Source of the DNA: Selenomonadaceae bacterium
GTDB lineage: Bacteria > Bacillota > Clostridia > Oscillospirales > CAG-272
Length of the DNA: 64,000 nt
NCBI GenBank assembly: GCA_963598415.1
Contig: CAVBUH010000030.1
Coordinates: 38,850 to 102,849 of the forward strand
Reading direction: 5' to 3'
In this document: piece after piece, positions 24,974-63,164 of the stretch
How positions within the stretch are numbered: the first letter of the stretch is position 1
Layout of the letters: every line of letters starts with the position of its first letter
Notes under the pieces: model-generated
The model's database searches: none
What the model was told of the DNA's origin: nothing
The model's input: the letters and a program-made list of their open reading frames with translations, nothing else
Program-made: the position numbers and the translations under genes

Positions 24974-25160
24974 TTTACCGTAGGGCGTGCACGCCCGCTC
25001 CTTTCTTGATAAAAAGGTTGAAAATACGCTTTACAAGATGATTTTTTTCTGATATAATTTAGTATAAAGTGATGTTATGTTATTTTAGGAAGCACTGCCG
25101 GGTTGACGGCTTGCGCCTTAACGGGCATATCTGCCTGTCCGTTTCCCGTTATACCTCAGA

Positions 25161-49228: not shown

Positions 49229-49256
49229 TTTTTACCGTTCCTTTCAGACAGAATTG

Positions 49257-49991
49257 TCACGCCCAGCGGCGCTTTTCATAAACGCGCACCGTAAGGAACA
49301 AAAACACAAAACTAATCGAGAAATAGTACAGGATCGCGTTGAAATCAAATACTCCGTATGTGAAGTTAGCAAAACGGCTGTATATGGAAAGCCAACTCAG
49401 CACCTCGCGTACCGGCGCAAAGGGAATATAGGAGTTAAGCATTCCGACGACAAGAAATAATGCCATAACGGCAATCGTTCCGATCGCGGAGATGATCTGG
49501 TTCTCGGTCATTGCGGAGATGAATATACCGACAGCAACAAACGCCGCTCCGATCAGGAGCACTGCAATTACAGAGCCGATAAGAATGGCGCCGTTATATT
49601 CGCTCGCTGTTCCCGCGTAGTTCTTCGGACCATATTCAAAGAGTGCGGTAAAGTTAATGCAGCCAATGAGAAAGGTTCCCGCGAAAACCGTATAGGCGGC
49701 AAGAAATTTGCCGATTACCATACCACCGAGGCTGACGGGGGAGGTCATAAGAAGCTGTTCCGTTTTAAGCTTTTTTTCCTCGCTGAAGGTTTTCATGGTA
49801 AGCAGAGGGATAAGGATAATAAGCGCGAAAATCATGGTGGTGAAATAGGAGCGTATACTGCTGCCGTCCCCCTCCTGAAGGGTAAACATCGAAAACACTC
49901 CGCCGTTTACCGCGAGAAATATCGCCATATACACATAACCGACCGGAGTTGTAAAGTACGAACACAGGTCTCGCTTGAAAATTGCAAACAT
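49257..49991 (-). CDS. ABC-2 family transporter permease
   Basis: 244 aa with about 6 hydrophobic helices. MFAIFKRDLCSYFTTPVGYVYMAIF is a typical N-terminus. Confidence 0.8.
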   Translation of the reverse strand: MFAIFKRDLCSYFTTPVGYVYMAIFLAVNGGVFSMFTLQEGDGSSIRSYFTTMIFALIILIPLLTMKTFSEEKKLKTEQLLMTSPVSLGGMVIGKFLAAYTVFAGTFLIGCINFTALFEYGPKNYAGTASEYNGAILIGSVIAVLLIGAAFVAVGIFISAMTENQIISAIGTIAVMALFLVVGMLNSYIPFAPVREVLSWLSIYSRFANFTYGVFDFNAILYYFSISFVFLFLTVRVYEKRRWA

Positions 49992-50017
49992 ATTGTGCCT
50001 TCCTTAACTTAAATATT

Positions 50018-51001
50018 TCAATTCGCTGCGCGTCTTATATCAACGCGCTTTTTTTTCTGTTTTATCTCGGGACTTTTCTCGGTCAGTGAGATGAATACCT
50101 CTTCAAGATTGGCGCCCGACGCTTCCGCTCCGATGAGCGGCCAATTATTTCTGGCAAGCAGATTGAAAAGCGGTTTGCGGATATCGATGCCGTTGTCGCT
50201 TTCAATAACATAGCTGGTGCTGTCCATATCAAGATTTCCGATGGATTCGGCGGAAAGTACTCCGGGAAGGGATTTGATGCCGGAAAGGACCTCTTTTGTA
50301 GGTCCGCATATTTTTACGCTGAGGCGGCGGTTGCCCTCTACAGCAGCGGCAATTTCTTCGGTTCGGCGATCGGCGGCGATTTTTCCTTTGTTAATGATAA
50401 TAACGCGGTCACAGACAGCCTGAACCTCTGAAAGAATATGGGTGCTCAGAATTACGGTATGATCAAGACCAAGCGTTCTTATAAGGTTTCTTATTTCAAC
50501 GACCTGACGCGGATCAAGTCCAACTGTCGGCTCATCCAGAATAATAACCTTGGGGTTGCCGACAAGAGCCTGTCCGATTCCGACTCTCTGGCGGTAACCC
50601 TTTGAGAGATTGCCGATGAGACGGTTCTTTACATCGGTAAGCTTTACAACCTCAATAATCTCCGCGATATGCTTTTTTTTGTTAAGCGTGCAGCCCTTCA
50701 GTTCGTATACAAAATTCAGATACTCCGTCACCGTCATATCAAGATAAAGCGGCGGCTGTTCAGGCAAATATCCGATATTCTTTTTTGCTTCGTTCGGATA
50801 ATCAAGTATGTCAAGCCCATCTACCTCCACTTTACCGTCGGTAAAGGAAAGAAATCCGGTAAGTATATTCATCGTTGTCGATTTCCCAGCTCCGTTCGGT
50901 CCTAAAAATCCAACGATTTCTCCTTTATTTACCTGAAAGCTGATTCCGTTTAGCGCATACTTTGTTCCGTAGCGCTTTGTCAGGTTTTCAATTTTAATCA
51001 T
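50018..51001 (-). CDS. ABC transporter ATP-binding protein
   Basis: GPNGAGKSTT Walker A, LSKGYRQRV signature and ILDEPTVGLD Walker B. Confidence 0.92.
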   Translation of the reverse strand: MIKIENLTKRYGTKYALNGISFQVNKGEIVGFLGPNGAGKSTTMNILTGFLSFTDGKVEVDGLDILDYPNEAKKNIGYLPEQPPLYLDMTVTEYLNFVYELKGCTLNKKKHIAEIIEVVKLTDVKNRLIGNLSKGYRQRVGIGQALVGNPKVIILDEPTVGLDPRQVVEIRNLIRTLGLDHTVILSTHILSEVQAVCDRVIIINKGKIAADRRTEEIAAAVEGNRRLSVKICGPTKEVLSGIKSLPGVLSAESIGNLDMDSTSYVIESDNGIDIRKPLFNLLARNNWPLIGAEASGANLEEVFISLTEKSPEIKQKKKRVDIRRAAN

Positions 51002-51229
51002 TCGTTTCTCCCCCGGTAAGGCTATCGCTCCATATTAGCGACAGTAATTCAATACTAAGTATATCACTCAAATATAAATAAATCTTGAACAACGATTCAA
51101 TAATACGGTTTTAAGACTTTTTTTCACAAAAAAATCAGCTAATCTTCACATAATCGGTGGAAATCAACTGTTTTAATTTTATTTAAATCATATTTAACTT
51201 TATGGATCGTATTTTTATCTTGACAAACC

Positions 51230-51258
51230 GCCACTTGTGTTGTATAATAATACCCGTT
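51230..51258 (+). promoter_or_regulatory. Perfect consensus promoter (TTGACA-17-TATAAT) upstream of the tRNA locus
   Basis: TTGACA at 51230-51235 and TATAAT at 51253-51258. Confidence 0.6.
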
Positions 51259-51384
51259 GATAGAAAGTTAGCTTTGAGTGTTAGTTTTTCAACTGCACCA
51301 TAACCAAATGGAAAGCATATTTATTAAAAACATGTTCTGTTGTATGACAGAAGTCGCAGCAAACATTAAATTTTCATATAATAC

Positions 51385-51452
51385 GAGGGTTATCGAAGCG
51401 GTCTATGAGGTGGTCTTGAAAACCCGTACGTAAGAGTCCCTTTTGTACCCTC
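51385..51452 (+). pseudogene. tRNA-Ser-derived fragment (5' two-thirds, no T-arm)
   Basis: GAGGGTTATCGAAGCGGTCTATGAGGTGGTCTTGAAAACCCG parallels the 5' acceptor, D and anticodon arms of the tRNA at 51564. No TTCGAAT T-loop is present. The ends GAGGGT/ACCCTC pair. It is followed by hairpin AAATCCTT/AAGGATTT. Confidence 0.55.
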
Positions 51453-51563
51453 AAAAATCCTTGTATGATAAGGATTTTCAGCACTTTCCAAAATACAAAA
51501 ATTTTATAGTTCTCTCGCGAAATTCTCTCGGAATTCCAAAGCATTTCGCTAAAGATATCCTAC

Positions 51564-51652
51564 GGAGGGATATCGAAGTGGTCATAACGAGGCGGTCTTG
51601 AAAACCGTTTGGGAGCAATCCCACAAGGGTTCGAATCCCTTTCCCTCCGCCA
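51564..51652 (+). tRNA. tRNA-Ser (anticodon UGA), CCA encoded
   Basis: Acceptor GGAGGGA/TCCCTCC, anticodon loop CTTGAAA, long variable arm TGGGA/TCCCA, T-arm AAGGG-TTCGAAT-CCCTT, discriminator G and CCA. Confidence 0.9.
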
Positions 51653-51697
51653 TAACAAAAGCAGGACGCCGTGAGGTGTTCTGCTTTTTGTCGTCAC

Positions 51698-51803
51698 GGA
51701 AAAGAGGGGATTCGAACGGGTTGGAAGTGAATGAGTGCCGGTGGCACTCAGAGCCAACCCTGACCGAGCCCGCAGGCGAGAATGAATCCCTTTTCCTCCG
51801 CCA
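51698..51803. repeat. About 106-nt imperfect palindromic element bounded by inverted copies of the tRNA-Ser 3' end; the right arm (51784-51803) is a 19/20 direct repeat of 51633-51652
   Basis: GGAAAAGAGGGGATTCGAAC...GAATCCCTTTTCCTCCGCCA. Internal perfect stems are GGGTTGG/CCAACCC and GAGTGCC/GGCACTC. Confidence 0.7.
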
Positions 51804-51971
51804 TTTTTAACAACAAACAGCACTTGATTTTGGTGATAATCGCTAAAAATTGGGTGCTTTTTGTTATGTTCGGCACGTGAAAATCCGTTTTTTGTACGAA
51901 CCGATTTTGCCCCTTGGAGAGAACTTTTATGTCTCGCCGAAATACCGAAAGCCTTGTAATATAAGGCTTTT

Positions 51972-52133
51972 TCACCTCTCCCAAGGGTTCTCGATTGTCA
52001 TGTTTTCGGGCACTTTTACCGCTTTTTCCATCACTTTTGCGGCATTTTCCTTACTGCTCCAATCCAAATGTGTGTAAATATTGAGGGTTACGCTGACGGT
52101 AGAATGCCCCCAATAGTCCTGCACTTCCTTTCG
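51972..52133 (-). pseudogene. Tyrosine recombinase (phage integrase family) C-terminal remnant
   Basis: Stop-to-stop frame RKEVQDYWGHSTVSVTLNIYTHLDWSS... matches the LGHxxxxxTxxxYxH catalytic-Tyr region. No N-terminal or core part is present, and the upstream 60 nt have 4 in-frame stops. Confidence 0.7.
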
Positions 52134-52193
52134 TTACACTCCAAGACAACGTTTTCACGTTCTCTTTCACCCCGTGTAAAAATGGACGCCCAA

Positions 52194-53225
52194 TCAGCTA
52201 TCTGTGACGGTAAGTGACGGTTGTGTCGATATTTCTTCCGTAGGATTTTTCTCGTCATTTGCGTCACCATCGTCATGCGGCAAGAGCGTCAGCTCCAGCC
52301 ACCGACCGTTGCCCGTTCGTCCCGATTCGTAGCGAATGCCGACGAACTTCAGATAGTCGTATGCCTCGGAGGAGAGACTTTTCGTCAGCACGTTGGGCTT
52401 GACGTTCTCCACACCCATAAGGGCAAGAAGCTCACTCGCCGTTCCGCGAAAGTGTCCGTGCTCCTTGATATACTCGCAGGTCTTGTAGACGATAGGGCTG
52501 AACCTTCGATAGCAGCTTGAGCTGCGGTCCTCGTTCCCGTTGACCGTTTCCCAAATGCAATCCTCGAAGGAGAGGCAAACGCCAACGTTTTGTACGTCGC
52601 GCCCCGTCCACAGAAGATCTGCGCGATCAGAACTGCGGTCAAACTTCTTGAGGAGTAGCGCCGTGTCAGCGGCACCCATCAATCCCGTTGAACCCGAGAT
52701 CTGATTGAAGGGATCGTCCTTGTCTTGTGTCTTGCGAAGGTGGTGCACAAGCACGATAGCGATACCAAGATGATCTGCTAACCTTTTCAGCGCACCGATA
52801 TCCTGATAGTCCTTGCCATAGACCGAGCTGTTTGCTTTTAGGTCGGATGAACTGCAAATCTTTTGCAGCGTGTCAATCACCACGAGCTTTGTTTCGGGGT
52901 ACTCTGTTTTGTGTAGAACGAGCTGCTCCTCAAGTGCGCCGCCAAGCGTTCCTGCTTGCACGGCAAAGCGCAATCGGTCAGGGCATTCCTCTGTGATTTT
53001 GGAAACGCGCTCCTTCACTCGCGCAAAGGTATCCTCAAGAGCGAGGTAGAGCACGTCGCAAGGTTGCGTGTTAAAGCCCATAAAACGCACGCCCAACGCT
53101 ACACAAATGCACAGTTGAAGTACGAACCATGACTTGCCGATTTTAGGCTGACCGCAAAGAAGCGTTAAACCTTCGGGGAGCAATTCTGCCACGATGAAAT
53201 TTTTCGGAGCATAGGGCGTTGCCAT
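52194..53225 (-). CDS. RepA/AAA_25-like RecA-fold ATPase (mobile-element replication/primase-associated type)
   Basis: 343 aa with Walker A CGQPKIGKSW, LVVIDTLQ and LVHHLRK blocks, typical of RepA-like helicase-loader ATPases of integrative elements. Confidence 0.7.
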   Translation of the reverse strand: MATPYAPKNFIVAELLPEGLTLLCGQPKIGKSWFVLQLCICVALGVRFMGFNTQPCDVLYLALEDTFARVKERVSKITEECPDRLRFAVQAGTLGGALEEQLVLHKTEYPETKLVVIDTLQKICSSSDLKANSSVYGKDYQDIGALKRLADHLGIAIVLVHHLRKTQDKDDPFNQISGSTGLMGAADTALLLKKFDRSSDRADLLWTGRDVQNVGVCLSFEDCIWETVNGNEDRSSSCYRRFSPIVYKTCEYIKEHGHFRGTASELLALMGVENVKPNVLTKSLSSEAYDYLKFVGIRYESGRTGNGRWLELTLLPHDDGDANDEKNPTEEISTQPSLTVTDS

Positions 53226-53335
53226 CAGCTCCTCTGTGTCGATGGTATCAAGCTTGTTAGGAGATAGGGATTATAAAGGTTATAATCCATTTTGCATCAT
53301 TCCTTTCTTACCTCTCACTTCCTTTCTGTTTGGAA

Positions 53336-53554
53336 TTACGATGCATCAGCGTCACACAGCATATAGCGAATGACGTTGATTTTGGGAATCCTGAAACGGT
53401 TTCCCACGATTACGCCGTGGATCTGCGGATGCTTTGCAAGTTCAAGTGCCGCTTTGCGCCCGATGCCCAGCATTTTTTGCAGATCACAAATGCCGACGAT
53501 GTCGGGATAATCCGCGAACATCATCTTCTCGTAAACAGTTGTCTTTTCTGTCAT
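53336..53554 (-). CDS. Excisionase/MerR-type HTH (HTH_17) small DNA-binding protein
   Basis: AAAGGAG RBS before ATG 53554. ...IVGICDLQKMLGIGRKAALELAKHPQIHGVIVGNRFRIPKINVIRYM. The ORF-track start at 53671 is unlikely. Confidence 0.7.
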   Translation of the reverse strand: MTEKTTVYEKMMFADYPDIVGICDLQKMLGIGRKAALELAKHPQIHGVIVGNRFRIPKINVIRYMLCDADAS

Positions 53555-53750
53555 ACACGATTCTCCTTTCTTTACAGTATGTAAAGAAGGCGTAACCGCT
53601 TCGCGGGTGCGCGTCTCACCATTTCGAGCATGACTCCCGCACCTCTCCCGTCGCATCGCAGGCGCGGACAAGGTCTATGTCAGCGAACTGCGGATTTCGA
53701 GAATGAAACTTGTCCGCAGTATATATAAACACCGCTTTCGCGAATGTTTT

Positions 53751-53875
53751 CAAAAATAAAAAGGGCGAGCATCAGAATAAGACAGAGGATACCTCTGTAA
53801 TAAAATCTGATACTCACCCTTGTCTCTCGATTTCACAGCCGGGAGGATGGCTCACTTTCGATTGTTATTGTATGC
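53751..53875. repeat. Direct repeat R, copy 1 (flanks the barnase/barstar cassette)
   Basis: About 125 nt, ~90% identical by eye to 54847-54973 (GGCGAGCATCAGAATAAGACAGAGG...CTCACCCTTGTCTCTCGATTTCACAGCC...GGATGGCTCAC). Confidence 0.85.
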
Positions 53876-54185
53876 TTATACGGGTGTTACCGCTGACAAT
53901 TTCAATTTGAATGTCATCGCAAAACATATCGTTATTATAATGCTTGAAGCGTTTCAATATTTCAATCATCTTGTTTGCGGAATCTCCGAATTTTCTTTCG
54001 ATGATTTCAAGACCTATGATTACGATGTGTATCGGTTCTCCATACATATCCGTAAGACAATCCCAAAAAGCCGACCAATTACAACCGTAATAATCAGGAA
54101 ATTTCAAGGACTTTTGAATGGTTTTATGCATCTCTAAAAAATATTTAGTATTTCTAAAATCGATTATATATTTATTTGAAATCAT
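53865..54185 (-). CDS. Barstar-family ribonuclease inhibitor (immunity protein)
   Basis: 106 aa. FPDYYGCNWSAFWDCLTD parallels barstar LPEYYGENLDALWDCLTG. Confidence 0.9.
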   Translation of the reverse strand: MISNKYIIDFRNTKYFLEMHKTIQKSLKFPDYYGCNWSAFWDCLTDMYGEPIHIVIIGLEIIERKFGDSANKMIEILKRFKHYNNDMFCDDIQIEIVSGNTRISIQ

Positions 54186-54195
54186 TATGCTCTCC

Positions 54196-54768
54196 TTATT
54201 GTGTTATTTCATAAAAAGTTTGATAATGATCGTATGTAACAAATATCAAACCATCATTTGAGTATAGTACTCTTTCGCGATTGCGTTTACCGCCATCATA
54301 ATTAATATCAGCCTCGTACCATGTTCTTCCGGGGAATGTAGGCAGTTTTAGATCATAGTTAGCATATGGATCACCACCGATCATTTTGCCTGGCAAAACA
54401 TCGTCTAATTGTTTGTGCTTCTTCTTCCATCCGGCAGCATATGCCTCAGCTTTGGTGACATAATAATTTGGCAAGCGACCTAAAAAATATAATTGCGCAT
54501 CGGCTCCATTATATCCTATATTTGTAGCGGTTCCCGCCGTTTTAGTTCGCATCGAAACATAGACGCATTTGCAATTGGGGTGTGCCTCAACTTCTTCTTT
54601 GTTATCCAAAATAGAAATGTCAACAATTTTTCCATGCTGTTCTATACAGAATTTGCAGGTATATATAGTTAATTGCGACATCCAATTTGCCCATTTGGTG
54701 CTATGCCCATATAAATCTCGGTTCTGAAGAAGATTATTTAATAAATTTTCTATTATATTTTCTGACAT
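54196..54768 (-). CDS. Barnase-family secreted-type ribonuclease toxin fused to a short MuF-like (CxxC...HPNCKC) N-terminal module
   Basis: C-terminal GRTWYEADINYDGGKRNRERVLYSNDGLIFVTYDHYQTF matches barnase GRTWREADINY...DHYQTF (Glu, Arg and His retained). The N-terminus CKFCIEQHGKIV...AHPNCKC resembles the end of the phage Mu F/SPP1 gp7 domain. Confidence 0.88.
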   Translation of the reverse strand: MSENIIENLLNNLLQNRDLYGHSTKWANWMSQLTIYTCKFCIEQHGKIVDISILDNKEEVEAHPNCKCVYVSMRTKTAGTATNIGYNGADAQLYFLGRLPNYYVTKAEAYAAGWKKKHKQLDDVLPGKMIGGDPYANYDLKLPTFPGRTWYEADINYDGGKRNRERVLYSNDGLIFVTYDHYQTFYEITQ

Positions 54769-54780
54769 TTTTACTCCTTA

Positions 54781-54809
54781 ATTATATTGTGTTTTTTATT
54801 TTTTGTCAA
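54781..54809 (-). promoter_or_regulatory. Perfect consensus promoter (TTGACA-17-TATAAT) directly upstream of the barnase gene
   Basis: The minus strand reads TTGACAAAAAATAAAAAACACAATATAATTAAGGAGTAAAAATG. The -10 ends only 12 nt before the ATG. Confidence 0.6.
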
Positions 54810-54846
54810 CTACAAGACATTACTTTCGTTAAGCACCACTCCTTCC

Positions 54847-54973
54847 CAAAAAACAAAAATGGCGAGCATCAGAATAAGACAGAGGTTGCTTCTGTAATAA
54901 AATCTGATACTCACCCTTGTCTCTCGATTTCACAGCCGAGAGGATGGCTCACTTTTCATTGTTATTATTATAC
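54847..54973. repeat. Direct repeat R, copy 2
   Basis: See 53751-53875. Confidence 0.85.
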
Positions 54974-54976
54974 TGA

Positions 54977-55216
54977 TTAAATAATCGGCACCGCCACGTA
55001 TCCTGCGGCGACCTTTGGCTTCTCAATCACCACAAGCATTTTCTTGCAGCGAGGGCAAAGATATGTAGGACCTTCGTATCCCGGTTCAGCTATGCGCGCG
55101 GTTACGTTGCGATTTTCGCGCGGATTGCTGCTATAGAGAATGGTGCAACCACATTCGGGGTTAGCGCACTTTGCAATCGGGATCTTATCTTGTGTAGCCT
55201 TACGCAATAGAATCAC
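54977..55216 (-). CDS. Small zinc-ribbon protein (CxxC...CxxC), hypothetical
   Basis: CANPECGC...CPRCKK. It is translationally coupled to the LexA-like gene. The alternative TTG start at 55207 is better spaced from GAGGTG. Confidence 0.5.
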   Translation of the reverse strand: MILLRKATQDKIPIAKCANPECGCTILYSSNPRENRNVTARIAEPGYEGPTYLCPRCKKMLVVIEKPKVAAGYVAVPII

Positions 55217-55217
55217 C

Positions 55218-55832
55218 TCACTTAATGTCCTTGATTACCTTCAGGGCAATACCTTGTATCTCAATCTTGCTCGGTTTTATCTCGCGGCGTTCTTTGGGAT
55301 AGTTCTTGTTCTCTGCAAGCAGCCAGGGACGCCCGTTTTCGCGCTTCATGAAGCGTTTGAGCGTGGTGCCCTCGTCCGTGAGCACGGCAACCACTTGCCC
55401 GTCATAAGCCTCCTGCGCGCGTTTAATGAGGACTAGATCACCGTCATCAATGCCAATGTTGATCATTGAATCACCCGACGTGCGAAGCAAATAGCACTCG
55501 CCGTCCAGCCACTCTTCCGGAATGGCAACGTAGCCTCGTATCTCCTGTCGGTTGTCCTCGGGAGAGCCGCAGACAATCGAACCAACGATGGGAACGCGGC
55601 GGAAGGCGGTCTTCATCGACTCTTGCCCTTTAACGGAAAGTGTATCCTTACCGTTGTATTTGACAATGCCACGGTCGCGCAGGGTGGTCAGATAGCGATA
55701 TCCAACCGAATTGCTCATCTCCATGTACTCAAGGATGTCCTTGAATTTGGGCGACTCGCCGTTGTTCTCCCGTATGTAGCGGTGAATGAACTCCGCCATT
55801 TGATTCAGTTTTTCTTCATTCATCCGCTTCAT
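55218..55832 (-). CDS. LexA/CI-like repressor (winged HTH + S24 peptidase)
   Basis: 204 aa with a cleavage-site-like VCG, catalytic GDSM (Ser) and LKRF (Lys), and an N-terminal LexA_DNA_bind-like region. Confidence 0.85.
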   Translation of the reverse strand: MKRMNEEKLNQMAEFIHRYIRENNGESPKFKDILEYMEMSNSVGYRYLTTLRDRGIVKYNGKDTLSVKGQESMKTAFRRVPIVGSIVCGSPEDNRQEIRGYVAIPEEWLDGECYLLRTSGDSMINIGIDDGDLVLIKRAQEAYDGQVVAVLTDEGTTLKRFMKRENGRPWLLAENKNYPKERREIKPSKIEIQGIALKVIKDIK

Positions 55833-55886
55833 AAACGCCCCGCAAATTTCAATCGAGAATAAAAGAACTATAACTTCTTTTATAAG

Positions 55887-55915
55887 AGTATACCATACGA
55901 GTCGGATTTTGTCAA
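55887..55915 (-). promoter_or_regulatory. Putative promoter of the LexA-like gene (TTGACA-17-TATACT, TGn)
   Basis: The minus strand reads TTGACAAAATCCGACTCGTATGGTATACT. An imperfect palindrome AGAAGTTATAGTTCT lies between the -10 and the ATG. Confidence 0.55.
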
Positions 55916-55936
55916 TAGGTTTTTTGCAAAAAAATA

Positions 55937-56068
55937 CGAGGTTGTCCTTTTGGGAACAACCTCGCGGGAATTATTATGCTTTCTTCGTGCCAAATTGGCA
56001 CGAAGTGGTCCGGTTGATTTTCAACCAGACCAACTTACAAATCAAAGGCTCATTTTGAGCCTTTGATT
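55937..56068. other. Array of four different back-to-back hairpins
   Basis: H1 55937-55964 (9+2 bp), H2 55983-56005 (9 bp perfect), H3 56006-56032 (11/12 bp), H4 56040-56068 (13 bp perfect, then TTTT on the plus strand). Confidence 0.8.
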
Positions 56069-56114
56069 TTAAGTGGGCTAATTTCGCCCGATGGTTTTAT
56101 TACAAATCCTTCAA

Positions 56115-56167
56115 ATATTTCGTGTTTTCTTCGCTTTTTGGCAATTTTCACACTAAAAAGTGAAAAT
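56115..56167. repeat. Short direct repeat Q (weak match to 59241-59297)
   Basis: ATATTTCGTGTTTTCTTCGCTTTTTG...TTTTCACACTAAAAAGTGAAAA versus ACATTTCGTGTTTCTTTCGTCTTTTG...TTTCGACACAAAGGGTGAAAAA. About 70-75% identity by eye. Confidence 0.4.
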
Positions 56168-56175
56168 TCACTTTC

Positions 56176-57384
56176 TCAAGTGGGTGTCGCCTCTGACAAA
56201 CTGAAATATACATTTTCGTTGTCAAAAAGCAATTCTACGGGCTCATTGTAAATCTTGTTCACCGCATTGATGTTATCAACAAACGGGCGAACGCAAGCAC
56301 AATGTTCGTGCGCAAAAAGTTCCATGGTATTTTCTGTGCGCTTTTCGCTATAATTTTGAACCTTATCACCGGCTTCAATAAGATTTTCGTCTACTTGACC
56401 ATCGCTTATTTTCGGAATTTTAGCAATTGTTTTCCCAAGTACTCTATTCAAGCTTGCGACACCTTTTAAGGTATAGGCTTCGATGGATGTTTTTGAATCA
56501 CCTTCTATCCTCTGATAGCATTTTTCATGCAAATCGTGATACTGACCTGCGTACAGTTGAATTTTGCTTGTTACGGCATTCAAATATCCGGCATCAAAAT
56601 TTTCAAGTAGCATTACTTCAAGGAAGGATGAGAAGGAGAAGATATACATTGCAAGCTCGTAATCCTTGAATTCGTACTGAACTTTTTGTATCTTGGATTT
56701 TACATCTCGGTCACTATGCAACAATCCTTTCTTAGTAACCTTCTTTTCAATTTGCTCGCGGCAGAAAATTATGCTTTGCTCCGCATCGCGCTTTATTTCT
56801 TGAACTTGAATATGCTTATTGTTTTTGTATTTTTTGTTGTCCCAATTGTACTTGTATTCGTCAAGTATTTCCTGCAGAACAGCGATATTGCCTTTCAACA
56901 TAGCTTTCTCTTTCAATTGTAAAAACTCGATAATATCCTTTTGCGCTTCTTCAATTTGGTCGAGTTTTTTTGTGATGGTTGATATAGCTATCGCCATCAG
57001 CATAATAGCCGGGTTAATTTGAGCAACCGTTCCGGCGGCTCCTTGAACCGCCTCAAAACGCGCTCTTTGCGTAATCGTTCCGCTTGCATCTACAACGTTT
57101 CCAAGCAAACCGCCATCTTTGGCAATTTGCAGACTTTCTCCCAACCGTAAACCATTTGGAATCCGCATACTGTATAACTGTTGTCCTACTCCTGAGTTTT
57201 GAACGCCGTTAAAAACATTCTTCAGCGCAGGTGCAATCGAAGCAAAAGTTGCTCCCATTGCAGATAGTTGACCAAGAGGAATCTTGGTATATTCTTGTGT
57301 AGCAACTTCATCTTGAATAACGGGGTAACACTCAATTTCCGTCATCGCACGAACTATTGCGTTTTTCTTTGTTATTTCATCCAT
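56176..57384 (-). CDS. Hypothetical protein (402 aa), no recognised domain
   Basis: AGGAGG sits 9 nt before ATG 57384. Gly/Ala-rich N-terminal third, one hydrophobic helix INPAIMLMAIAISTI, then a K/E/Q-rich helical region. Confidence 0.6.
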   Translation of the reverse strand: MDEITKKNAIVRAMTEIECYPVIQDEVATQEYTKIPLGQLSAMGATFASIAPALKNVFNGVQNSGVGQQLYSMRIPNGLRLGESLQIAKDGGLLGNVVDASGTITQRARFEAVQGAAGTVAQINPAIMLMAIAISTITKKLDQIEEAQKDIIEFLQLKEKAMLKGNIAVLQEILDEYKYNWDNKKYKNNKHIQVQEIKRDAEQSIIFCREQIEKKVTKKGLLHSDRDVKSKIQKVQYEFKDYELAMYIFSFSSFLEVMLLENFDAGYLNAVTSKIQLYAGQYHDLHEKCYQRIEGDSKTSIEAYTLKGVASLNRVLGKTIAKIPKISDGQVDENLIEAGDKVQNYSEKRTENTMELFAHEHCACVRPFVDNINAVNKIYNEPVELLFDNENVYFSLSEATPT

Positions 57385-57452
57385 AGTTGATGACCTCCTC
57401 ATTGTTTTTCACAATAGGTCTTGTAAATTTTGCGAATAAACTTCGAGGGCTT

Positions 57453-59180
57453 TTACAAGCTCTTCAAATATTCAGTGGCGTTCACATACTGAACCCCATC
57501 CACGTCCTTTGTTTCTCCGCTGTAAATTACGTATTTGCCCGTGATTTTGCCAAATCTCTTTTCGGTAATCTCGTTCAATTCTTCCATACGCAAGAATCTT
57601 GCCTGTTGCTCTACGATTTTGTCGCTGTGCTTTACTTCATAAATGCGGCAGGTGTTTGTGTCTTTATCATAGATCACCATGTCATACTCGCCGCGAACGT
57701 CAAACTTGAATTTGAACACCTCTTGGCTACGAGGAGCGGCTTTGGATGTCTCAAGCAACACAATATCCTCAAGCATTCTGCCTTTTACATCGTCAAGAAT
57801 CTTCGTTGCGATATATTCTTTATCAAGCTCCGATACCGATTTGAAATATTCGTCCTGCTTCAGAGAATAAACAAGCGCTTTGGCTATGGAATAGCGCATA
57901 CCGGGCTGGAAGAATACGGTGTGTTCGGACTGTCCGCGCGTCTCATGGCGTTCGATACAATTTACAATCAAATCAAGCATAAAGAGATATTTTTTCACCT
58001 TCTCAATATGCTCCTGCGTGATTTCCACCGTGGTCTCGCGTCTTTCCTTCACTTCGATCAATACCTTCAGGCGGTCAACAATTGCTTTGGTATCTATGTC
58101 ATAGAGAATGTGCGCTCTCTCTGCAGGTGCTTCTTTCAAAAGAAGCTGTCTCGACGAACCAAGGTCATGGGATTTGAATTCTTCTTGCACCACGCTCAAA
58201 AGGAATTGGTGGTTCATGCTTTCAACGATTCGGTTGATGACATTGGTCAACTCACCCTTGTCGTAAAGCTCGCGCAACTGATTGAAATACTCGCCGTAGC
58301 TGTCGTTTTTCAGCGTGTGCTGAATATTACGGCTGATTGCGGTATCAATGTATTTTCTCGTGCTCTCATCGTCGCGGAAGGAAACGTCATCGAAAGCGGA
58401 ATCAGGGTCATCAAAACTCATATTCTCCATCTTGAGCGTTCCGCCGTATTCAATATAACTATCCACAGAATCAATACCAAGCAATCGCGAATATTCCCGG
58501 AAAGGAATAAAGGACGTGTGGATCGTTATGCTTCTGTCATACAGCTCGTCTCGGTTTGCCATAGCAAAGCCGAGGGAGTCCGTACCCGAAACGACGATTT
58601 TCATACCCATCATGGCGTATATATCGGAGAGAACCGCCGCCGTATTGATGAAATCCTCCATCAAGGTGATTTCGTCTATGAACACATACTTGTATCCGTT
58701 CTTGCTCAAAACATCAAGGTCCTTTGTCAGCATAGACATATTGTCGGTGGTCTTGATCTTGATATAAGCGGTATGCTCCACGGGAAGAGAACTAATCATT
58801 TGGAATAGTAGGGTGGTCTTACCAGTCCTACGTAAGCCGTAAAGAATACAAATTTTTCCGCCAATATCTCTCTTTATAAATTCTTGCAAGAGGTCATAGC
58901 AATCTCTCTTTTGATATTTGGCGACACCGCGCACAAGTGCTTGTATACTTTCACCGGTGACAACATTGGTGTGAAACCCGCCAATGCTCAAAACGGTAGC
59001 AGATGTGGGCACTTTCTGTCCATAAGCCTCAACCTTTTGGTAGATAGCATTGTATTTTGCGGTTTTTATTTTGCGTTCATCATTTTCGTAATTCTGATAA
59101 TTCCTCACGGACATACCAAGATAATCAGCACATTCGATTTGGCTGAGTCCCTTGGATATTCTTAGTTGTTTCAAAGTCAT
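57453..59180 (-). CDS. XRE-HTH + P-loop ATPase (AAA_14-like) + C-terminal DUF4143/PD-(D/E)xK-like domain protein
   Basis: LKQLRISKGLSQIECADYLGMS HTH, GLRRTGKTT Walker A, VFIDEI Walker B and C-terminal GEYDMVIY...CRIYEVKH. GAGGTG RBS precedes ATG 59180. Confidence 0.75.
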   Translation of the reverse strand: MTLKQLRISKGLSQIECADYLGMSVRNYQNYENDERKIKTAKYNAIYQKVEAYGQKVPTSATVLSIGGFHTNVVTGESIQALVRGVAKYQKRDCYDLLQEFIKRDIGGKICILYGLRRTGKTTLLFQMISSLPVEHTAYIKIKTTDNMSMLTKDLDVLSKNGYKYVFIDEITLMEDFINTAAVLSDIYAMMGMKIVVSGTDSLGFAMANRDELYDRSITIHTSFIPFREYSRLLGIDSVDSYIEYGGTLKMENMSFDDPDSAFDDVSFRDDESTRKYIDTAISRNIQHTLKNDSYGEYFNQLRELYDKGELTNVINRIVESMNHQFLLSVVQEEFKSHDLGSSRQLLLKEAPAERAHILYDIDTKAIVDRLKVLIEVKERRETTVEITQEHIEKVKKYLFMLDLIVNCIERHETRGQSEHTVFFQPGMRYSIAKALVYSLKQDEYFKSVSELDKEYIATKILDDVKGRMLEDIVLLETSKAAPRSQEVFKFKFDVRGEYDMVIYDKDTNTCRIYEVKHSDKIVEQQARFLRMEELNEITEKRFGKITGKYVIYSGETKDVDGVQYVNATEYLKSL

Positions 59181-59198
59181 TATCATCACCTCAATGTT

Positions 59199-59227
59199 AG
59201 TATATCACAATTCTGCGCAAAAATCAA
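59199..59227 (-). promoter_or_regulatory. Putative promoter of the two-gene cassette (TTGATT-17-TATACT, TGn)
   Basis: The minus strand reads TTGATTTTTGCGCAGAATTGTGATATACT. Confidence 0.5.
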
Positions 59228-59240
59228 CAGGATTGCGTAA

Positions 59241-59297
59241 ACATTTCGTGTTTCTTTCGTCTTTTGTTCATGCGTTTCGACACAAAGGGTGAAAAAG
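59241..59297. repeat. Short direct repeat P (weak match to 56115-56167)
   Basis: See 56115-56167. Confidence 0.4.
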
Positions 59298-59813
59298 AGT
59301 GTGCTCATGTGATAAAAGTGCCGCTTGCGGCAAAAATATTAGATGGACTTATAGCAACAGAAAAGGATGGGCCGTGAGAACCATCCCTCTAACTTATTCA
59401 GTTTCGCTTTTGTTTGTTTTTCGTCACCTCAAAGCTTACTTACAATCCTTGTACAACTTCATTGTCAAGTTGTTTCTTTCGTTCTTTCCAATCAGGCATA
59501 TACAAATGTTACCTGCTATTTTTACGCATTACTTCATTCCTCCTGATTTTATTGCAAATATTCCTCTTTACTCTATTCCAATGATACGTCTGTAATATAG
59601 GAAAGGACTATTCCAAAAACAAGTAATTTACGCCATCTAAACTTTAAGGTGATAGTGAAATGAATCACTATCACCCTAATTCATAGGTTATTTATCTTTT
59701 TGTTTGCTACGGCGCTCATGATAACTGAACTTCCTCTGACAAGGAGATGTGCGCCTCTAAAAAATTTATTACAAATGTGTTTTTTATTTGTGACTTTTTC
59801 TATACATAATCAA

Positions 59814-59844
59814 GGGCTACCGTTTGAATATCAAACGGTAGCCC
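59814..59844 (-). terminator. Hairpin downstream of the 321-aa surface protein gene
   Basis: Perfect 14-bp stem GGGCTACCGTTTGA/TCAAACGGTAGCCC with a 3-nt loop. The flanking T-run is weak. Confidence 0.5.
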
Positions 59845-59852
59845 CGACACAA

Positions 59853-60818
59853 TTATTCGCCCTTGTAATAATTGATTGTAAAATCGATGGTTCCGGTGTA
59901 TTTTCCGGGGTTAGCGGCATCGTCGGTAACTGTTACAGTACCGTCGAGAGTATCTCCGGATTTTGTGAGATTGCCGGTTTCTAAGGCGTTGGTGAATGCA
60001 AGCTCATTGCTTCCGCTTACAAGCTTGCCGCTTTCGCTGGCGGTAACGGTAACATAAGCATTTTCGTCAAGAATGAAGTTCTTAGCAGTAACAGTATAGG
60101 AGCCTGTTTTAGTAGTAGCATCTACGGTGATGGTGGCAGGAATTTCAACCTCGTAACCTCCGGTAACGGTATATTCGACATTTGCGCTCTGTTTCTTACT
60201 TTCGGTTGCTTCAACGATCTTTTGGGCAGAATTCCAATCGATTGTCAGTTTTGCAGTATGTTTGGTTGCAACGCCGGGAGTGTTGGAAGAACCGGTGCCT
60301 GAACCATCGCCAAGCTGACAACCCATTACATTGCTGTCAAGATAGAGCCACATTGTGTACTCACTTACCGCAGTATCAACGGGAAGAGTGATAGAAGTGA
60401 TATAATTGACCTGACCACTTGCATTAGCAACGGTGTCGGTACTGATGGTGTAAGCTACGCCTTCTTTAGAAACAGCACTGTTCACATAAACACCGGGAGC
60501 TTCGTCTGTTCCAATAAAAGCAGTGCAAGCAACGCCATAAATGGAAAGTCCTGAAGTTGTTCCGAGATTAATGGTCGCTTTAGCGTTTCCGTCTTCTGCG
60601 ATTTCAACGGTAGTTCCGGTCATAAGACCGTAGCCGTCAGAAAATTCAACGCCGCCCATAGCGTTTACATAGCAGGAAAGTGTTGCGTCCACATTGTAAT
60701 TACCTGCTTCGGTGGGTGTTGCCGTGAAAACTGTTACGGCAGTCATTGACATCATCACAGCCAATGCAAGAACCCAGCTCAGAATTTTCCCCATAGGGGA
60801 ACTTTTTATTTTGTACAT
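59853..60818 (-). CDS. Secreted/cell-surface protein, possibly NEAT-like ligand-binding domain (tentative)
   Basis: Signal peptide (ILSWVLALAVMMSMTAVTVFT), Thr/Val-rich beta-type sequence, adjacent to an iron/heme-type ABC importer. The NEAT resemblance is only pattern-level. Confidence 0.45.
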   Translation of the reverse strand: MYKIKSSPMGKILSWVLALAVMMSMTAVTVFTATPTEAGNYNVDATLSCYVNAMGGVEFSDGYGLMTGTTVEIAEDGNAKATINLGTTSGLSIYGVACTAFIGTDEAPGVYVNSAVSKEGVAYTISTDTVANASGQVNYITSITLPVDTAVSEYTMWLYLDSNVMGCQLGDGSGTGSSNTPGVATKHTAKLTIDWNSAQKIVEATESKKQSANVEYTVTGGYEVEIPATITVDATTKTGSYTVTAKNFILDENAYVTVTASESGKLVSGSNELAFTNALETGNLTKSGDTLDGTVTVTDDAANPGKYTGTIDFTINYYKGE

Positions 60819-60891
60819 TTTATGTACTCCTTTCTCGGCGTTTTACGCCATTAAAATTTTATTCTCAAGGCGTAACGCCCTTTGAGACAGT

Positions 60892-61374
60892 TTAGTTAAC
60901 GACCAATTGAAACGGCACATCAGCGCCGTTCATCGGTGAGTTATCCGCAATAGAGTAGGTATCGTAATGCAAGGTTGCATCATAAGTTCCGTGTTCCATA
61001 GCCCGTTTCAGTTCGACTTCGTACAAGACTTGACCCGGTTTTATGTATTTCGATTTATAAATCACTTCACCCGTATCATTTAAGATAACGCTGACTACGA
61101 AATAACAGGTGTTTGATTCGGGATTGTAAAAACGAGTGCTTGCTTTTGTTTTACCCGCATCTATTGTCCATGTATCAAATCCGGGAATTGATATTTTTTT
61201 AGACAGCGTTACCTGCGGATTAAAAGCCTGATCATTCTCGAATTGAACGTCGGGATTCAAAAAATATTTGTATCCTACGAATAAAAACAGCAGTAAACAC
61301 AAGACTGCGGTAATGCCGGCAACGACCATCGTATATCCGACTGTTTTTCTTTTGTTCACTTTGTTCTCACGCAT
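60892..61374 (-). CDS. Hypothetical single-pass membrane protein
   Basis: ATG 61374 gives MRENKVNKRK plus TM MVVAGITAVLCLLLFLFVGY. 8-nt overlap with the ATPase gene end. Confidence 0.55.
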   Translation of the reverse strand: MRENKVNKRKTVGYTMVVAGITAVLCLLLFLFVGYKYFLNPDVQFENDQAFNPQVTLSKKISIPGFDTWTIDAGKTKASTRFYNPESNTCYFVVSVILNDTGEVIYKSKYIKPGQVLYEVELKRAMEHGTYDATLHYDTYSIADNSPMNGADVPFQLVVN

Positions 61375-62179
61375 ACAATTCTCCTTTACGGCTGAATACA
61401 CAATGCTGTCTGCCGTTTGCTGTAGTTATAATATCGGAAGAAACCGAAAACGCTTCGTTTAATACATCTTTCGTAACGGACTGCCGAACCGTTCCCTGCG
61501 AAATGATTTTACCTTCTTTCATGATTACAGCTTCGTTACAAAACTCCAATGCCAAATTGATATCATGTAGCACCATAATGACAGTGATACCCTTTTTACG
61601 GTTTAAATTACGTACCAAATGCATTATTTCAAGCTGATAATGAATATCAAGATAGGTTGTTATTTCATCGAGTAATAATATCTTCGTATCCTGTGCTAAT
61701 GCCATTGCCAGCCAGACCCTTTGAAGCTGTCCGCCCGAAAGGGAAGATATTGTACGCTCAGCAAGATGTTTCGTTTCCGTATCTAATAGTGCCTGATCTA
61801 CAGCCGCGTCATCTTCGGCGTTATTTTTCCCGAATAATGTTTTATACGGTGTTCTTCCGGCTTCCACAAGCTTTCTTACCGTAATATCCGACGGAGCAGT
61901 ATTGCTTTGATGAACAACCGCAACTTTTTTGGCAAGAACATTTCGTTTATAATCGTTTATGCTTTTCCCATCCAAAAGAATAACTCCGCTGTCAGCATTC
62001 ATAATTCCTGCGATTAAATTTAACAGGGTTGATTTGCCGCAGCCGTTTGCACCAATCAGTGCAGTGATCTTTCCCTTGGAAAATGAAGTATTGACATTTT
62101 GCAATATAGGACTTTTCTTATCATAGGAAAAGGAAAGGTTTTGTACCGACAAATATTCATTACTTACCATAGATCGCAC
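61367..62179 (-). CDS. Iron-siderophore/heme/cobalamin-type ABC transporter ATP-binding protein (FecE/FhuC-like)
   Basis: GANGCGKSTLL Walker A, LSGGQLQRV and LLLDEITTYLD. Confidence 0.9.
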   Translation of the reverse strand: MRSMVSNEYLSVQNLSFSYDKKSPILQNVNTSFSKGKITALIGANGCGKSTLLNLIAGIMNADSGVILLDGKSINDYKRNVLAKKVAVVHQSNTAPSDITVRKLVEAGRTPYKTLFGKNNAEDDAAVDQALLDTETKHLAERTISSLSGGQLQRVWLAMALAQDTKILLLDEITTYLDIHYQLEIMHLVRNLNRKKGITVIMVLHDINLALEFCNEAVIMKEGKIISQGTVRQSVTKDVLNEAFSVSSDIITTANGRQHCVFSRKGELYA

Positions 62180-63164
62180 CGCTCCTTTTCAAAAGGATTA
62201 TAAGCATCGGACCACCTATGAACGCCATAATAATTGACGCGCTGATTTCATAAGGATATGCGATCATTCTGCCAAAGGTATCGGCAAACAAAAATACAAG
62301 TGCTCCGAGAAGTGCGCTAAACGGCAGCAATCTCTTATGTTCGCTTCCCACAAGTAACCTTGCAATATGCGGAACGATGAGACCGAGAAAACTGACCGCA
62401 CCAATAATAGCTGTGAATACCGATGCCATTAAAACTGACACAACAGACACGATAAGCCTTGTTTTGTTAACGCTGATACCAAGGCTCATAACGGTTTTAT
62501 CGGAAAACGAAAGTAGATTACAGCGGTTTGCAAGCAACATACAGGCAATGAATGAAATAATCGCATATATCAGAAGAATGTGTACATCTTCCCAATCCTT
62601 TAGAGAAATATTTGCATTGATGATACTTGCCGCGCCCGTATAAGTCGAACCGGTAAGTGCGTTAAAGGCTTGATACAGACCTGTAAAAAACGTATCAATT
62701 GCGATACCTGTCAAAATCAGTCTTGCCGGGCTGATTTCCTTGCTCCAAGCAAGAAAATAAACAGCAGCAAACGCAATTATACCGCCGGCAAAAGAGAAGA
62801 TAGGTGTCAGTGCCGCAAAAGAAGGAAATAATGAAGACACAATCACTGCCGCAAACGCAGAACCTGACGTAACGCCAATAATTCCGGGATCTGCGAGAGG
62901 ATTGCGCATGACCGCCTGCATTAAAACGCCCGACATTGCCATTATAGCGCCGCCTAATATTGCTACGATGATTCTTGGAAAACGAAGCTGCAAAATGATC
63001 GCCACGGTTTCATCGTATTCCAGAAACAATCCTCTGAAAAGCTGTGATACGGTAGTATGAAGTCCACCTGTATTTATTGCCCAAAAGAAGCAAAGCAAAA
63101 GAAGAAATGCAGTTATTAAAAATAGGATTATGGTTTTTGTCGATATTTTTTTCACTTTACTCAC
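62160..63164 (-). CDS. FecCD-family ABC transporter permease
   Basis: 334 aa, highly hydrophobic (about 9-10 helices), typical FecCD/BtuC layout. It overlaps both neighbours. Confidence 0.88.
   Translation of the reverse strand: MSKVKKISTKTIILFLITAFLLLLCFFWAINTGGLHTTVSQLFRGLFLEYDETVAIILQLRFPRIIVAILGGAIMAMSGVLMQAVMRNPLADPGIIGVTSGSAFAAVIVSSLFPSFAALTPIFSFAGGIIAFAAVYFLAWSKEISPARLILTGIAIDTFFTGLYQAFNALTGSTYTGAASIINANISLKDWEDVHILLIYAIISFIACMLLANRCNLLSFSDKTVMSLGISVNKTRLIVSVVSVLMASVFTAIIGAVSFLGLIVPHIARLLVGSEHKRLLPFSALLGALVFLFADTFGRMIAYPYEISASIIMAFIGGPMLIILLKRSGAIYGK

Follow-up and report, generated by a model that had tools for sequence, protein, structure and literature searches.

Integrative and mobilizable elements (IMEs), their remnants, their tandem arrays and their use of tRNASer as a target have been described in gut Firmicutes (PMC12084326). 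Firmicute IMEs with a relaxase of the PF03432 family, for example the 'MOBP7' IMEs and remnants in Faecalibacterium (PMC12084326), are the closest known system to the locus considered here. We analyzed a 64,000-nt stretch of contig CAVBUH010000030.1 from a Selenomonadaceae bacterium (hereafter, the window), and focused on the island that extends from position 51784 to ~59386 beside a tRNA-Ser gene. This stretch of ~7.7 kb is an ordinary, already known kind of genomic island. We propose, with a probability of about 0.85, that it is the immobilised remnant of an IME, and that its family targets tRNA-Ser in uncultured gut Clostridia. A previous reading of the same DNA, made from the letters alone (the sequence-only reading), had claimed an acquired tRNA-Ser island that lost its mobility and keeps toxin/defence-type cargo in promoter-bearing units, and this claim is borne out by homologous intact elements. 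The accompanying gene list (integrase remnant, RepA-like ATPase, excisionase-like protein, barstar and barnase, Zn-ribbon protein, LexA/CI-like repressor, 402-aa protein and ATPase with a helix-turn-helix (HTH) domain) was found to be correct by family and structure searches of the window proteins.

The relatives of the island resemble the 'MOBP7' IMEs in several respects. Their integrase gene adjoins the 3′ end of a tRNA gene, with tRNASer among the known sites, and the relaxase gene is preceded by that of a small accessory protein. Furthermore, both groups lack type IV secretion system (T4SS) genes, carry defence or toxin cargo, and frequently occur as tandem or remnant structures. In contrast, the window copy is without the integrase, the relaxase and one attachment (att) site, and is a remnant. 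In addition, the accessory protein of the family is NikA-like and not annotated as MobC, and the family possesses a LexA-type S24 repressor, a Zn-ribbon partner and a conserved array of five hairpins. In a non-exhaustive literature check, we found neither this repressor with its partner nor this array described.

The relatives were reached by two routes: loci L101 to L105 via homologues of the AAA_25 ATPase of the island (4312 homologues at E <= 1e-20), and loci L106 to L108 via homologues of the 402-aa protein. Window segments 53822-52131, 55219-54980 and 56072-55220 showed 78-87% nucleotide identity to L101 and L103-L108. Overall, the intact elements have 78-88% nucleotide identity to the backbone of the island. 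The closest backbone is that of L102 (87-95% nucleotide identity), which L124 resembles. The island is recognized as an IME remnant by its collinear backbone homology to L101-L108 and L124, at 78-95% nucleotide identity, with the recombination and mobilisation genes lost. In the relatives, the gene for the S24 repressor (204 aa, 95-96% identical) is followed by the Zn-ribbon gene, a terminator like the repeat R described below, and a 72-aa HTH gene (94-100% identical). The order continues with the AAA_25 gene, a gene for a NikA-like protein, a PF03432 relaxase gene and, in some elements, a 110-aa gene; then come an opposite-strand 217-aa gene (L101-L105) and the gene for a 399-aa tyrosine integrase. 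Directly beyond the integrase gene of L104 there is a tRNA-Ser(cga) gene. At the other end of the family, in L125, the distal cargo is joined to the 3′ half of tRNA-Ser(TGA), from the anticodon loop to CCA, and then a terminator follows. Starting from the tRNA, the order of the complete element is integrase, 217-aa gene, (110-aa gene), relaxase, NikA-like gene, AAA_25, 72-aa HTH, R, cargo slot 1, Zn-ribbon gene, slot 2, repressor with its promoter and palindrome, five-hairpin array and slot 3. The distal part of the element is a long cargo region with defence systems, and a partial tRNA-Ser copy forms its end. No T4SS genes were present in the window or in the loci of the relatives.

Because the relatives encode a relaxase, a NikA-like accessory protein and a tyrosine integrase, the family is one of IMEs and not one of phage-inducible chromosomal islands (PICIs). 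The sequence-only reading had called the island PICI/IME-like; the IME part of this description holds, and the PICI part fails, packaging and interference genes being absent. If the island were a remnant of a PICI or other phage satellite, a helper phage would relieve the repression and provide the capsids for packaging. The relaxase and the NikA-like relaxosome protein in the intact relatives are instead a conjugative-mobilisation signature, and PHROG and Pfam searches gave no terS, capsid-size or interference genes. PICIs and the island are alike in that both are small and tRNA-associated, with an integrase, an Xis-like HTH protein, a replication-type ATPase and a CI-like repressor. Phage-related matches were also obtained: AAA_25 matches PHROG primase/helicase families, the CI-like repressor matches phrog_4, and the N-terminus of the barnase-domain protein has a weak match to MuF-like (phage head morphogenesis) proteins (E 4e-4). 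However, the repressor gene is co-directional with the rest of the element and not divergent, so that the gene orientation differs from that of PICIs, and no relatives of the barnase-domain protein or the repressor were found in the viral collections searched (IMG/VR and GenBank phages). We consider a PICI origin extremely unlikely.

The genes that conferred mobility are missing at a single point of the window. Unless stated otherwise, the genes, promoters, repeats and hairpins of the island given below are on the minus strand. By BLAST, window position 52131 corresponds to L101 position 11179, and window position 52130 corresponds to L101 position 15768. At this junction (52130/52131), the alignment switches from the sequence that follows AAA_25 to the 3′ end of the integrase gene, and the switch falls at a short AGGAA microhomology. 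Accordingly, ~4.6 kb is missing, namely the NikA-like gene, the relaxase gene, two small genes and the integrase gene except for its last ~50 codons. The tyrosine integrase remnant (51972..52130) has no start codon, but retains the motif NIYTH with the catalytic tyrosine, and positions 51972-52124 encode a sequence with 82% amino acid identity to the last 49 residues of the 399-aa integrases. Family searches of the window proteins did not detect a relaxase. An integrase gene of its own, a relaxase gene and flanking att repeats, which a functional IME should possess, are all lacking in the window copy. Mobility was lost by one 4.6-kb deletion plus loss of the distal att site; because the deletion took the integrase and the relaxase and the distal att site is gone, the window copy is unable to excise or to be mobilised.

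The left end of the island preserves the integration target. The intact tRNA-Ser(TGA) gene (51564..51652, plus strand), which was called by ARAGORN and Rfam, is the sole tRNA. Two att-like repeats on the plus strand are found at this end, 151 nt apart: copy 1 (51633-51653) contains the last 20 nt of tRNA-Ser, and copy 2 (51784..51804) is identical to it at 20 of 21 positions. The position of copy 2 is the point at which the tRNA 3′ end meets the integrase-proximal end of the element in a sister strain, L008. The flanks of L008 are 97.5% identical to those of the window, and a different occupant is present at the same tRNA: the tRNA has an element-type 3′ half and is directly followed by a related integrase open reading frame (ORF) that is still open where the contig ends and has a length of at least 265 aa. 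Because the T arm and acceptor strand of the L008 tRNA match those of the L104 tRNA-Ser(cga), the element supplies the 3′ part of the tRNA. As an observation on the same piece (L008 1-1049), the variable arm, the T arm and the acceptor 3′ strand of its tRNA-Ser(TGA) differ from those in the window. Since L008 carries another occupant, the site is variable within the species complex. Within the species, the island is constant: it was found, at >= 99.6% identity and with every ORF intact, in 17 pieces of metagenomic contigs from the human gut and in one NCBI assembly. Apparent defects in the LexA-like gene of L005 and L013 were runs of N in the scaffolds, not mutations. The sequence-only reading had named, as the picture of a region that was not acquired, the same gene order in all relatives together with a backbone-like composition. 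We found something else: the conspecifics share the order but L008 differs, the backbone genes occur beside other tRNA-Ser genes in other genomes, and the composition is mosaic.

More than one integration seems to have taken place at this site. A degenerate 5′ half of tRNA-Ser (CTTGAAAACC; 51385..51425, plus strand), which is also present in L008, is located 180 nt upstream of the tRNA-Ser gene, stops at the anticodon loop, and ends where the L125 fragment starts; it is probably an old att scar. The 5′ half and the L125 fragment share this break point, which suggests that elements integrated here more than once and crossed over within the anticodon loop. The two att-like copies are separated by a 131-nt spacer (51653..51783) that contains the terminator hairpin of the tRNA gene together with an inverted piece of the tRNA 3′ end (51686-51717), and is possibly the residue of a second, tandemly integrated element that was later deleted down. 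Repeated integrations at a hotspot would be the simplest explanation of the tRNA fragments at the left end. Altogether, three fragments of tRNA-Ser surround the intact gene: the 5′ half (51385-51425), the inverted 3′ piece (51686-51717) and the direct 3′ piece (51784-51804). A reading of 51690-51804 as a minus-strand tRNA was discarded: its T stem is unable to pair, and neither ARAGORN nor Rfam calls it. A plus-strand sigma-70-type promoter that agrees with the consensus at 12 of 12 positions is located at 51220-51248, 315 nt upstream of tRNA-Ser and 135 nt upstream of the 5′-half copy; presumably, it serves the tRNA-Ser gene.

At the right end, no att site was found. Three versions of tRNA-Ser were locally aligned with positions 59150-60000 and only chance matches were obtained, and the 55-nt tRNA half of the L125 type was not found in the same interval; this agrees with the sequence-only reading, in which no second att copy could be found on the right. 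This matters for the idea that the island is a cis-mobilizable element (CIME), which would still be excised and transferred by a related IME or by an integrative and conjugative element (ICE) that integrates in tandem and acts on flanking att sites. CIMEs have been described in Firmicutes (PMC12084326), two att-like copies are present at the left end, and L008 shows that a related element with an open integrase ORF occupies the same tRNA. However, with no att site to the right of the cargo, the island is not bracketed by a pair of sites, and it is invariant and fixed in all conspecific contigs. In related IMEs, a putative origin of transfer (oriT) lies upstream of the accessory gene (PMC12084326). 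In the window, ~63 nt of the intergenic region between the AAA_25 and NikA-like genes is kept, but most of this region, which is expected to hold oriT, has been deleted. A CIME that is still mobile is therefore very unlikely, and we return to the immobilised remnant.

The island carries two pairs of direct repeats, R and P/Q. The sequence-only reading had described R as 125 nt at about 90% identity and P/Q as about 55 nt; both pairs were detected, with the sizes revised. R1 (53752..53869) and R2 (54849..54966) share 118 nt with 93% identity, while P (56113-56180) and Q (59239-59308) share ~70 nt with ~70% identity. The claim that they flank cassettes as ends was not upheld, as they are landmarks of the family backbone, a terminator and an ACACGAA-rich stretch, respectively. 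Each relative has one copy of R, located between the 72-aa HTH gene and its upstream neighbour, whose stop codon it directly follows. On the transcribed strand, R folds into an extended stem-loop that has a U tail (z = -5.2 and -3.4 for the two copies), and its apical stem covaries. Thus, R is a backbone terminator of the family. R1 is the native backbone copy, a long-hairpin intrinsic terminator with a U tail that begins at the barstar stop codon, and R2 terminates the operon of the LexA-like repressor and the Zn-ribbon protein. The downstream flank of R1 is of the L102 type, while the linker downstream of R2 resembles that of L122 and L123. Because the flanks of R1 and R2 resemble those of different loci, the R duplication is read as a splicing scar. 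It could have arisen by a Campbell-type single crossover, or when two elements whose cargo lay on different sides of R recombined.

The P landmark (56100..56180) tells of a further loss. P is fused to the final 8 codons (56100-56124) of a lost second HTH-ATPase gene, as seen from the comparison of TKYLKDL* with TEYLKSL*. Judged from this fusion, P points to a microhomology deletion of a paralogous unit. P/Q is an ACACGAA-rich landmark of the family, and L101 and L103 likewise have it upstream of their hairpin arrays. We also observed that P/Q contains several ACACGAA- or GACGAAG-like repeats spaced ~10-12 nt apart, which are found at 5741-5786 of L101 and 1991-2036 of L102; L101 and L103 have 4-5 of them. 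These repeats look like iterons. Taken together, R and P/Q are conserved backbone landmarks, not ends borne by cassettes, and they became duplicated at the points of cargo insertion. The direct repeats would accordingly represent scars of recombination between related elements at conserved landmarks, rather than ends of transposable units.

The barnase/barstar cassette between the two R copies (53865..54812; GC content 0.35) has its own promoter at 54781-54809. It encodes a 190-aa barnase-domain protein (54196-54768; PF00545, E 2e-11; PDB 1rnb, E 5e-30) and barstar (53865-54185; PF01337, E 3e-16), whose gene begins 11 nt downstream of the barnase gene. Thus, a barnase domain with aligned catalytic residues is accompanied by an adjacent barstar gene, as expected for a toxin-inhibitor pair: the C-terminal 100 residues align to 1rnb, and the equivalents of K27, E73, R83, R87 and H102 are present. 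In these points, and in the barstar-family gene immediately next to it, the pair is like the barnase-barstar pair of Bacillus amyloliquefaciens. In contrast to Bacillus amyloliquefaciens barnase, the window protein possesses an extra N-terminal region of ~85 residues with a CxxC...CxC motif and the weak MuF-like match mentioned above, and the pair is carried as a promoter-bearing two-gene unit. We considered that the ORF might be a 5′-truncated MuF polymorphic toxin, and rejected this: the 190-aa form is the norm, nearly all of 1639 homologues with this architecture being ~190 aa, and there were no phage matches.

The cassette was found in three further contexts (L114-117, L118-121 and L122-123), in which the flanks are unrelated to those in the window. 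The homology extends from the -35 hexamer to the barstar stop codon, and the TTGACA-17-TATAAT promoter and the ribosome-binding site are kept. By these comparisons, the barnase/barstar unit is a promoter-bearing cassette. It is absent from L102 and L124, both of which have a single R. In L122 (1578-3514) and L123 (959-2895), the promoter-barnase-barstar cassette is preceded by an S24 repressor gene (44% identical), a gene for a 73-aa protein with CxxC, and an R-like hairpin terminator. This set is located among ordinary metabolic genes, and other IME genes are absent nearby; it represents either the remnant of an element that has decayed further or four genes that form a functional module.

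These distributions bear on whether R, and perhaps P/Q, is an integron-like recombination site of an active system, in which a site-specific or structure-specific recombinase would insert and excise promoter-bearing cassettes. In comparison with L102 and L124, each with one R, the cassette flanked by R appears as a clean indel; the stop codon of whichever gene comes before it is always followed immediately by R, which forms a long, imperfect hairpin; and, among the four contexts of the cassette, an R-like hairpin precedes it in L122/L123 also. However, the copies in L114-L121 have no R at their ends, the homology there stopping at the -35 hexamer and the stop codon, and two R copies occur in the window lineage only, among seven elements. 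There is no integron-type integrase, and the cassette has its own promoter (12/12), unlike the promoterless integron cassette that ends in attC. The U tail and the position of R suit a plain intrinsic terminator, and a single crossover or inter-element recombination explains the duplication without a dedicated enzyme. Therefore, we see little chance that such a cassette system operates here, and we retain duplication of a backbone terminator by recombination.

In the relatives, the cargo slots are empty or filled with other genes. The barnase slot of L101 and L103-L108 holds a DUF3990 gene (PDC-M42A, 2.4e-46) with an HTH_3 gene, and the second slot, in the interval between the repressor and Zn-ribbon genes, is occupied by either a radical-SAM gene or one of 150 aa. 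The slot that precedes the repressor gene contains PDC-S31 in L101, a 220-aa gene in L103, and the 402-aa gene in L106-L108 and the window. The distal cargo of the relatives consists of Gabija (GajA 2e-157, GajB 4e-91), McrBC, or DrmB-like, DndB-like and helicase genes.

Two proteins of the window occupy such positions. The gene for the 402-aa protein (56176..57384) fills the cargo slot that precedes the repressor module, and L102 lacks it. Its sequence gave no match in Pfam, NCBIfam, PHROGs, PADLOC or PDB, and all of its 431 homologues are unannotated. The neighbours of these homologues vary: some are in IME cargo slots, some stand alone between housekeeping genes, and some are beside helicase, sigma-like and Dcm-MutH-Vsr genes. 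An AlphaFold model (predicted local distance difference test score, 70) places a small beta domain at the N-terminus and a long helical bundle after it. When the model was compared with PDB folds, nothing significant was obtained; the best E value was 0.019, for generic helical bundles, and weak ClyA/AhlC-like rows were also non-significant. The sole significant match in BFVD was to an uncharacterised metagenomic siphovirus protein (E 2.9e-15). The other gene (57453..59189, probable start 59180) encodes a 575-aa ATPase with HTH_3 and AAA_14 domains, which is 96% identical to the L102 copy. This HTH-ATPase matches only part of the profile of the PADLOC candidate defence system PDC-S01 (E 1.8e-14), through residues 91-273 and positions 9-210 of the 412-position profile. 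In relatives, the slots of the 402-aa protein and the HTH-ATPase are occupied by defence genes, and the two proteins therefore probably function in defence or in competition between elements; for the 402-aa protein, this role is suggested by position alone.

A bolder proposal is that the locus is a domesticated defence island, in which the repressor, the Zn-ribbon protein, R and barnase-barstar form a suicide or immunity unit triggered by damage or phage, and the 402-aa protein is a new factor that acts alone against phages or competing elements. This draws on the association of repressor and cassette, which recurs outside a recognisable IME in L122/L123. We regard the proposal as unlikely, and prefer the IME remnant with its cargo.

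The regulatory module of the backbone is intact. The LexA/CI-type S24 repressor (55218..55832; 204 aa, 92-96% identical in the IME relatives) matches PF00717 (E 5.9e-25) and, over residues 10-203, TIGR00498 (E 1.2e-30). Because the TIGR00498 score was 106.6 bits against a cut-off of 110.95, the protein is not a LexA equivalog. Its translation contains the GDSM serine, the LIKR lysine and a putative Cys-Gly cleavage site, as predicted for an autoproteolytic repressor. The promoter with its palindrome (55859..55915) is invariant in the family. The promoter, TTGACA-17-TATACT, is located at 55887-55915, and the perfect palindrome ATAAAAGAA-N7-TTCTTTTAT at 55859-55883, just downstream of the repressor -10 element; no second copy of the palindrome was found within the window. 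The palindrome is a candidate autoregulatory operator. The gene for the 79-aa Zn-ribbon-like protein (54977..55216), a backbone gene after the repressor gene, encodes two CxxC pairs, and the protein has no family match. An S24 repressor with a promoter and palindrome beside hotspots of defence cargo is also a feature of the SXT/R391 ICEs (SetR) and other elements governed by CI/LexA-like S24 proteins. However, SXT/R391 are large self-transmissible ICEs of Gammaproteobacteria to which no sequence relationship was shown, and SOS control of the present family is a prediction.

Upstream of the repressor promoter, there is an array of five hairpins (55936..56090), the last of which is a terminator with a U tail. 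The array is kept in 7 elements, with compensatory changes in 7 of 48 pairs, and has no Rfam match. A sixth hairpin is located at 56140-56170. The array may be a stack of terminators that shields the regulatory module from the cargo genes; alternatively, it may act as a single-strand origin once transfer has taken place. An Rfam search of 50900-60900 at E <= 1 returned the tRNA only, with no match for R or the hairpins.

In the intact elements, the S24 repressor would silence the excision, replication and mobilisation genes until its self-cleavage is stimulated by RecA. In the remnant, the repressor probably still autoregulates via the palindrome at its own promoter. Each cargo unit would be transcribed from a promoter of its own, with termination at the R hairpins and at the terminator of the hairpin array, and barnase/barstar would act as a toxin-immunity or addiction pair. 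Three near-consensus promoters had been claimed previously. In our scan, the promoters at 54809-54781 (12/12) and 55915-55887 (11/12 with TG) were confirmed, but the third, at 59227-59199, agreed at no more than 9/12 positions with TG, and shuffled sequences often score as high.

Several points weigh against our interpretation. No empty tRNA-Ser site was found when contigs of species representatives were scanned with the flanking ATP-binding cassette (ABC) ATPase; the closest genomes in the representative collection have the flanking ABC protein at no more than 72% amino acid identity, and have neither the tRNA-Ser nor synteny. Look-ups of the exact proteins of both flanks returned only island-bearing contigs and L008, again with no empty site. 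All 17 of the 17 conspecific contig pieces carry the identical island and, for this reason, the acquisition is deduced by comparison with relatives rather than seen directly. In addition, the island has no defined right boundary. At the left, the full tRNA 3′ half is like the host-type half of L125 and unlike the element-type half in L008 and L104, and the element adjoins a 21-nt fragment located 131 nt downstream of the complete tRNA. The mismatched 3′ half and the displaced fragment therefore imply an integration history beyond a simple left att site. Furthermore, the ATPase was the sole protein matched by PADLOC, and the match covered only a part of the profile. A function of the cargo in defence, and the control of IME genes by a repressor that is cleaved upon stimulation by RecA, are what we infer.

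If the interpretation is accepted, the island is a fully mapped case of a mobilizable island that turned into a fixed chromosomal defence/toxin locus: a single deletion took the integrase and transfer genes, and the repressor module and the cargo are intact in every sampled strain. It belongs to a widespread tRNA-Ser IME family of gut Clostridia with fixed slots that hold Gabija, DISARM-like systems, McrBC, PDC candidates and barnase/barstar. These cargo slots are a practical hunting ground for new defence genes, and the 402-aa protein is one candidate. Current concepts are unchanged by our findings, and their main value is a well-resolved example with a cargo-slot architecture worth mining.

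Two further backbone genes lie between R1 and the deletion junction. The AAA_25 (RepA/DnaB-like) ATPase gene (52194..53225; E 3.7e-28) is an intact IME backbone gene, and the 72-aa Xis/AlpA-like HTH protein (53336..53554), which is 94-100% identical across the family, has a weak HTH_17 match (E 0.005). All supported ORFs between 51972 and 59189 are on the minus strand, as had been stated. However, strand is no island marker, because the host genes at 47660-51001 and 59853-63939 are also on the minus strand. The earlier impression of AT-richness is correct for the cassette: the GC content of 53870-54848 is 0.346, which is below that of all 202 of 202 backbone 1-kb windows (mean 0.453, standard deviation 0.033). 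It does not apply to the AAA_25 gene (0.526) and the LexA-like gene (0.517), which are above the backbone mean, and the island overall has a GC content of 0.437. Because high-GC backbone genes are combined with a low-GC cassette, the island is a mosaic and not uniformly AT-rich.

The last stretch with homology to L102 (59199..59386) contains the HTH-ATPase promoter (59199-59227), Q (59239-59308) and two hairpins. Homology to any relative stops at 59386, and the interval from 59387 to 59852 (GC content 0.34), which has no homologue among the relatives compared, forms the undefined right end; the right border was within 59387-59800 and is destroyed. A family D end that had been placed at 59751-59765 was not substantiated, since the sole related sequence is a 15-mer with one mismatch at 25160. 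The AT-rich stretch between the island and the host gene for a 321-aa protein contains a palindrome with 15-bp arms, TTAAGGTGATAGTGA / TCACTATCACCCTAA, at 59644-59679, and the terminator of the host gene is located at 59814-59844. The host gene itself (59853-60818) adjoins an iron-type ABC transporter operon. Its product has an N-terminal hydrophobic segment and gave no match in Pfam, NCBIfam, PHROGs or PADLOC; a fragment of a paralogue with 41% identity is present in L126.

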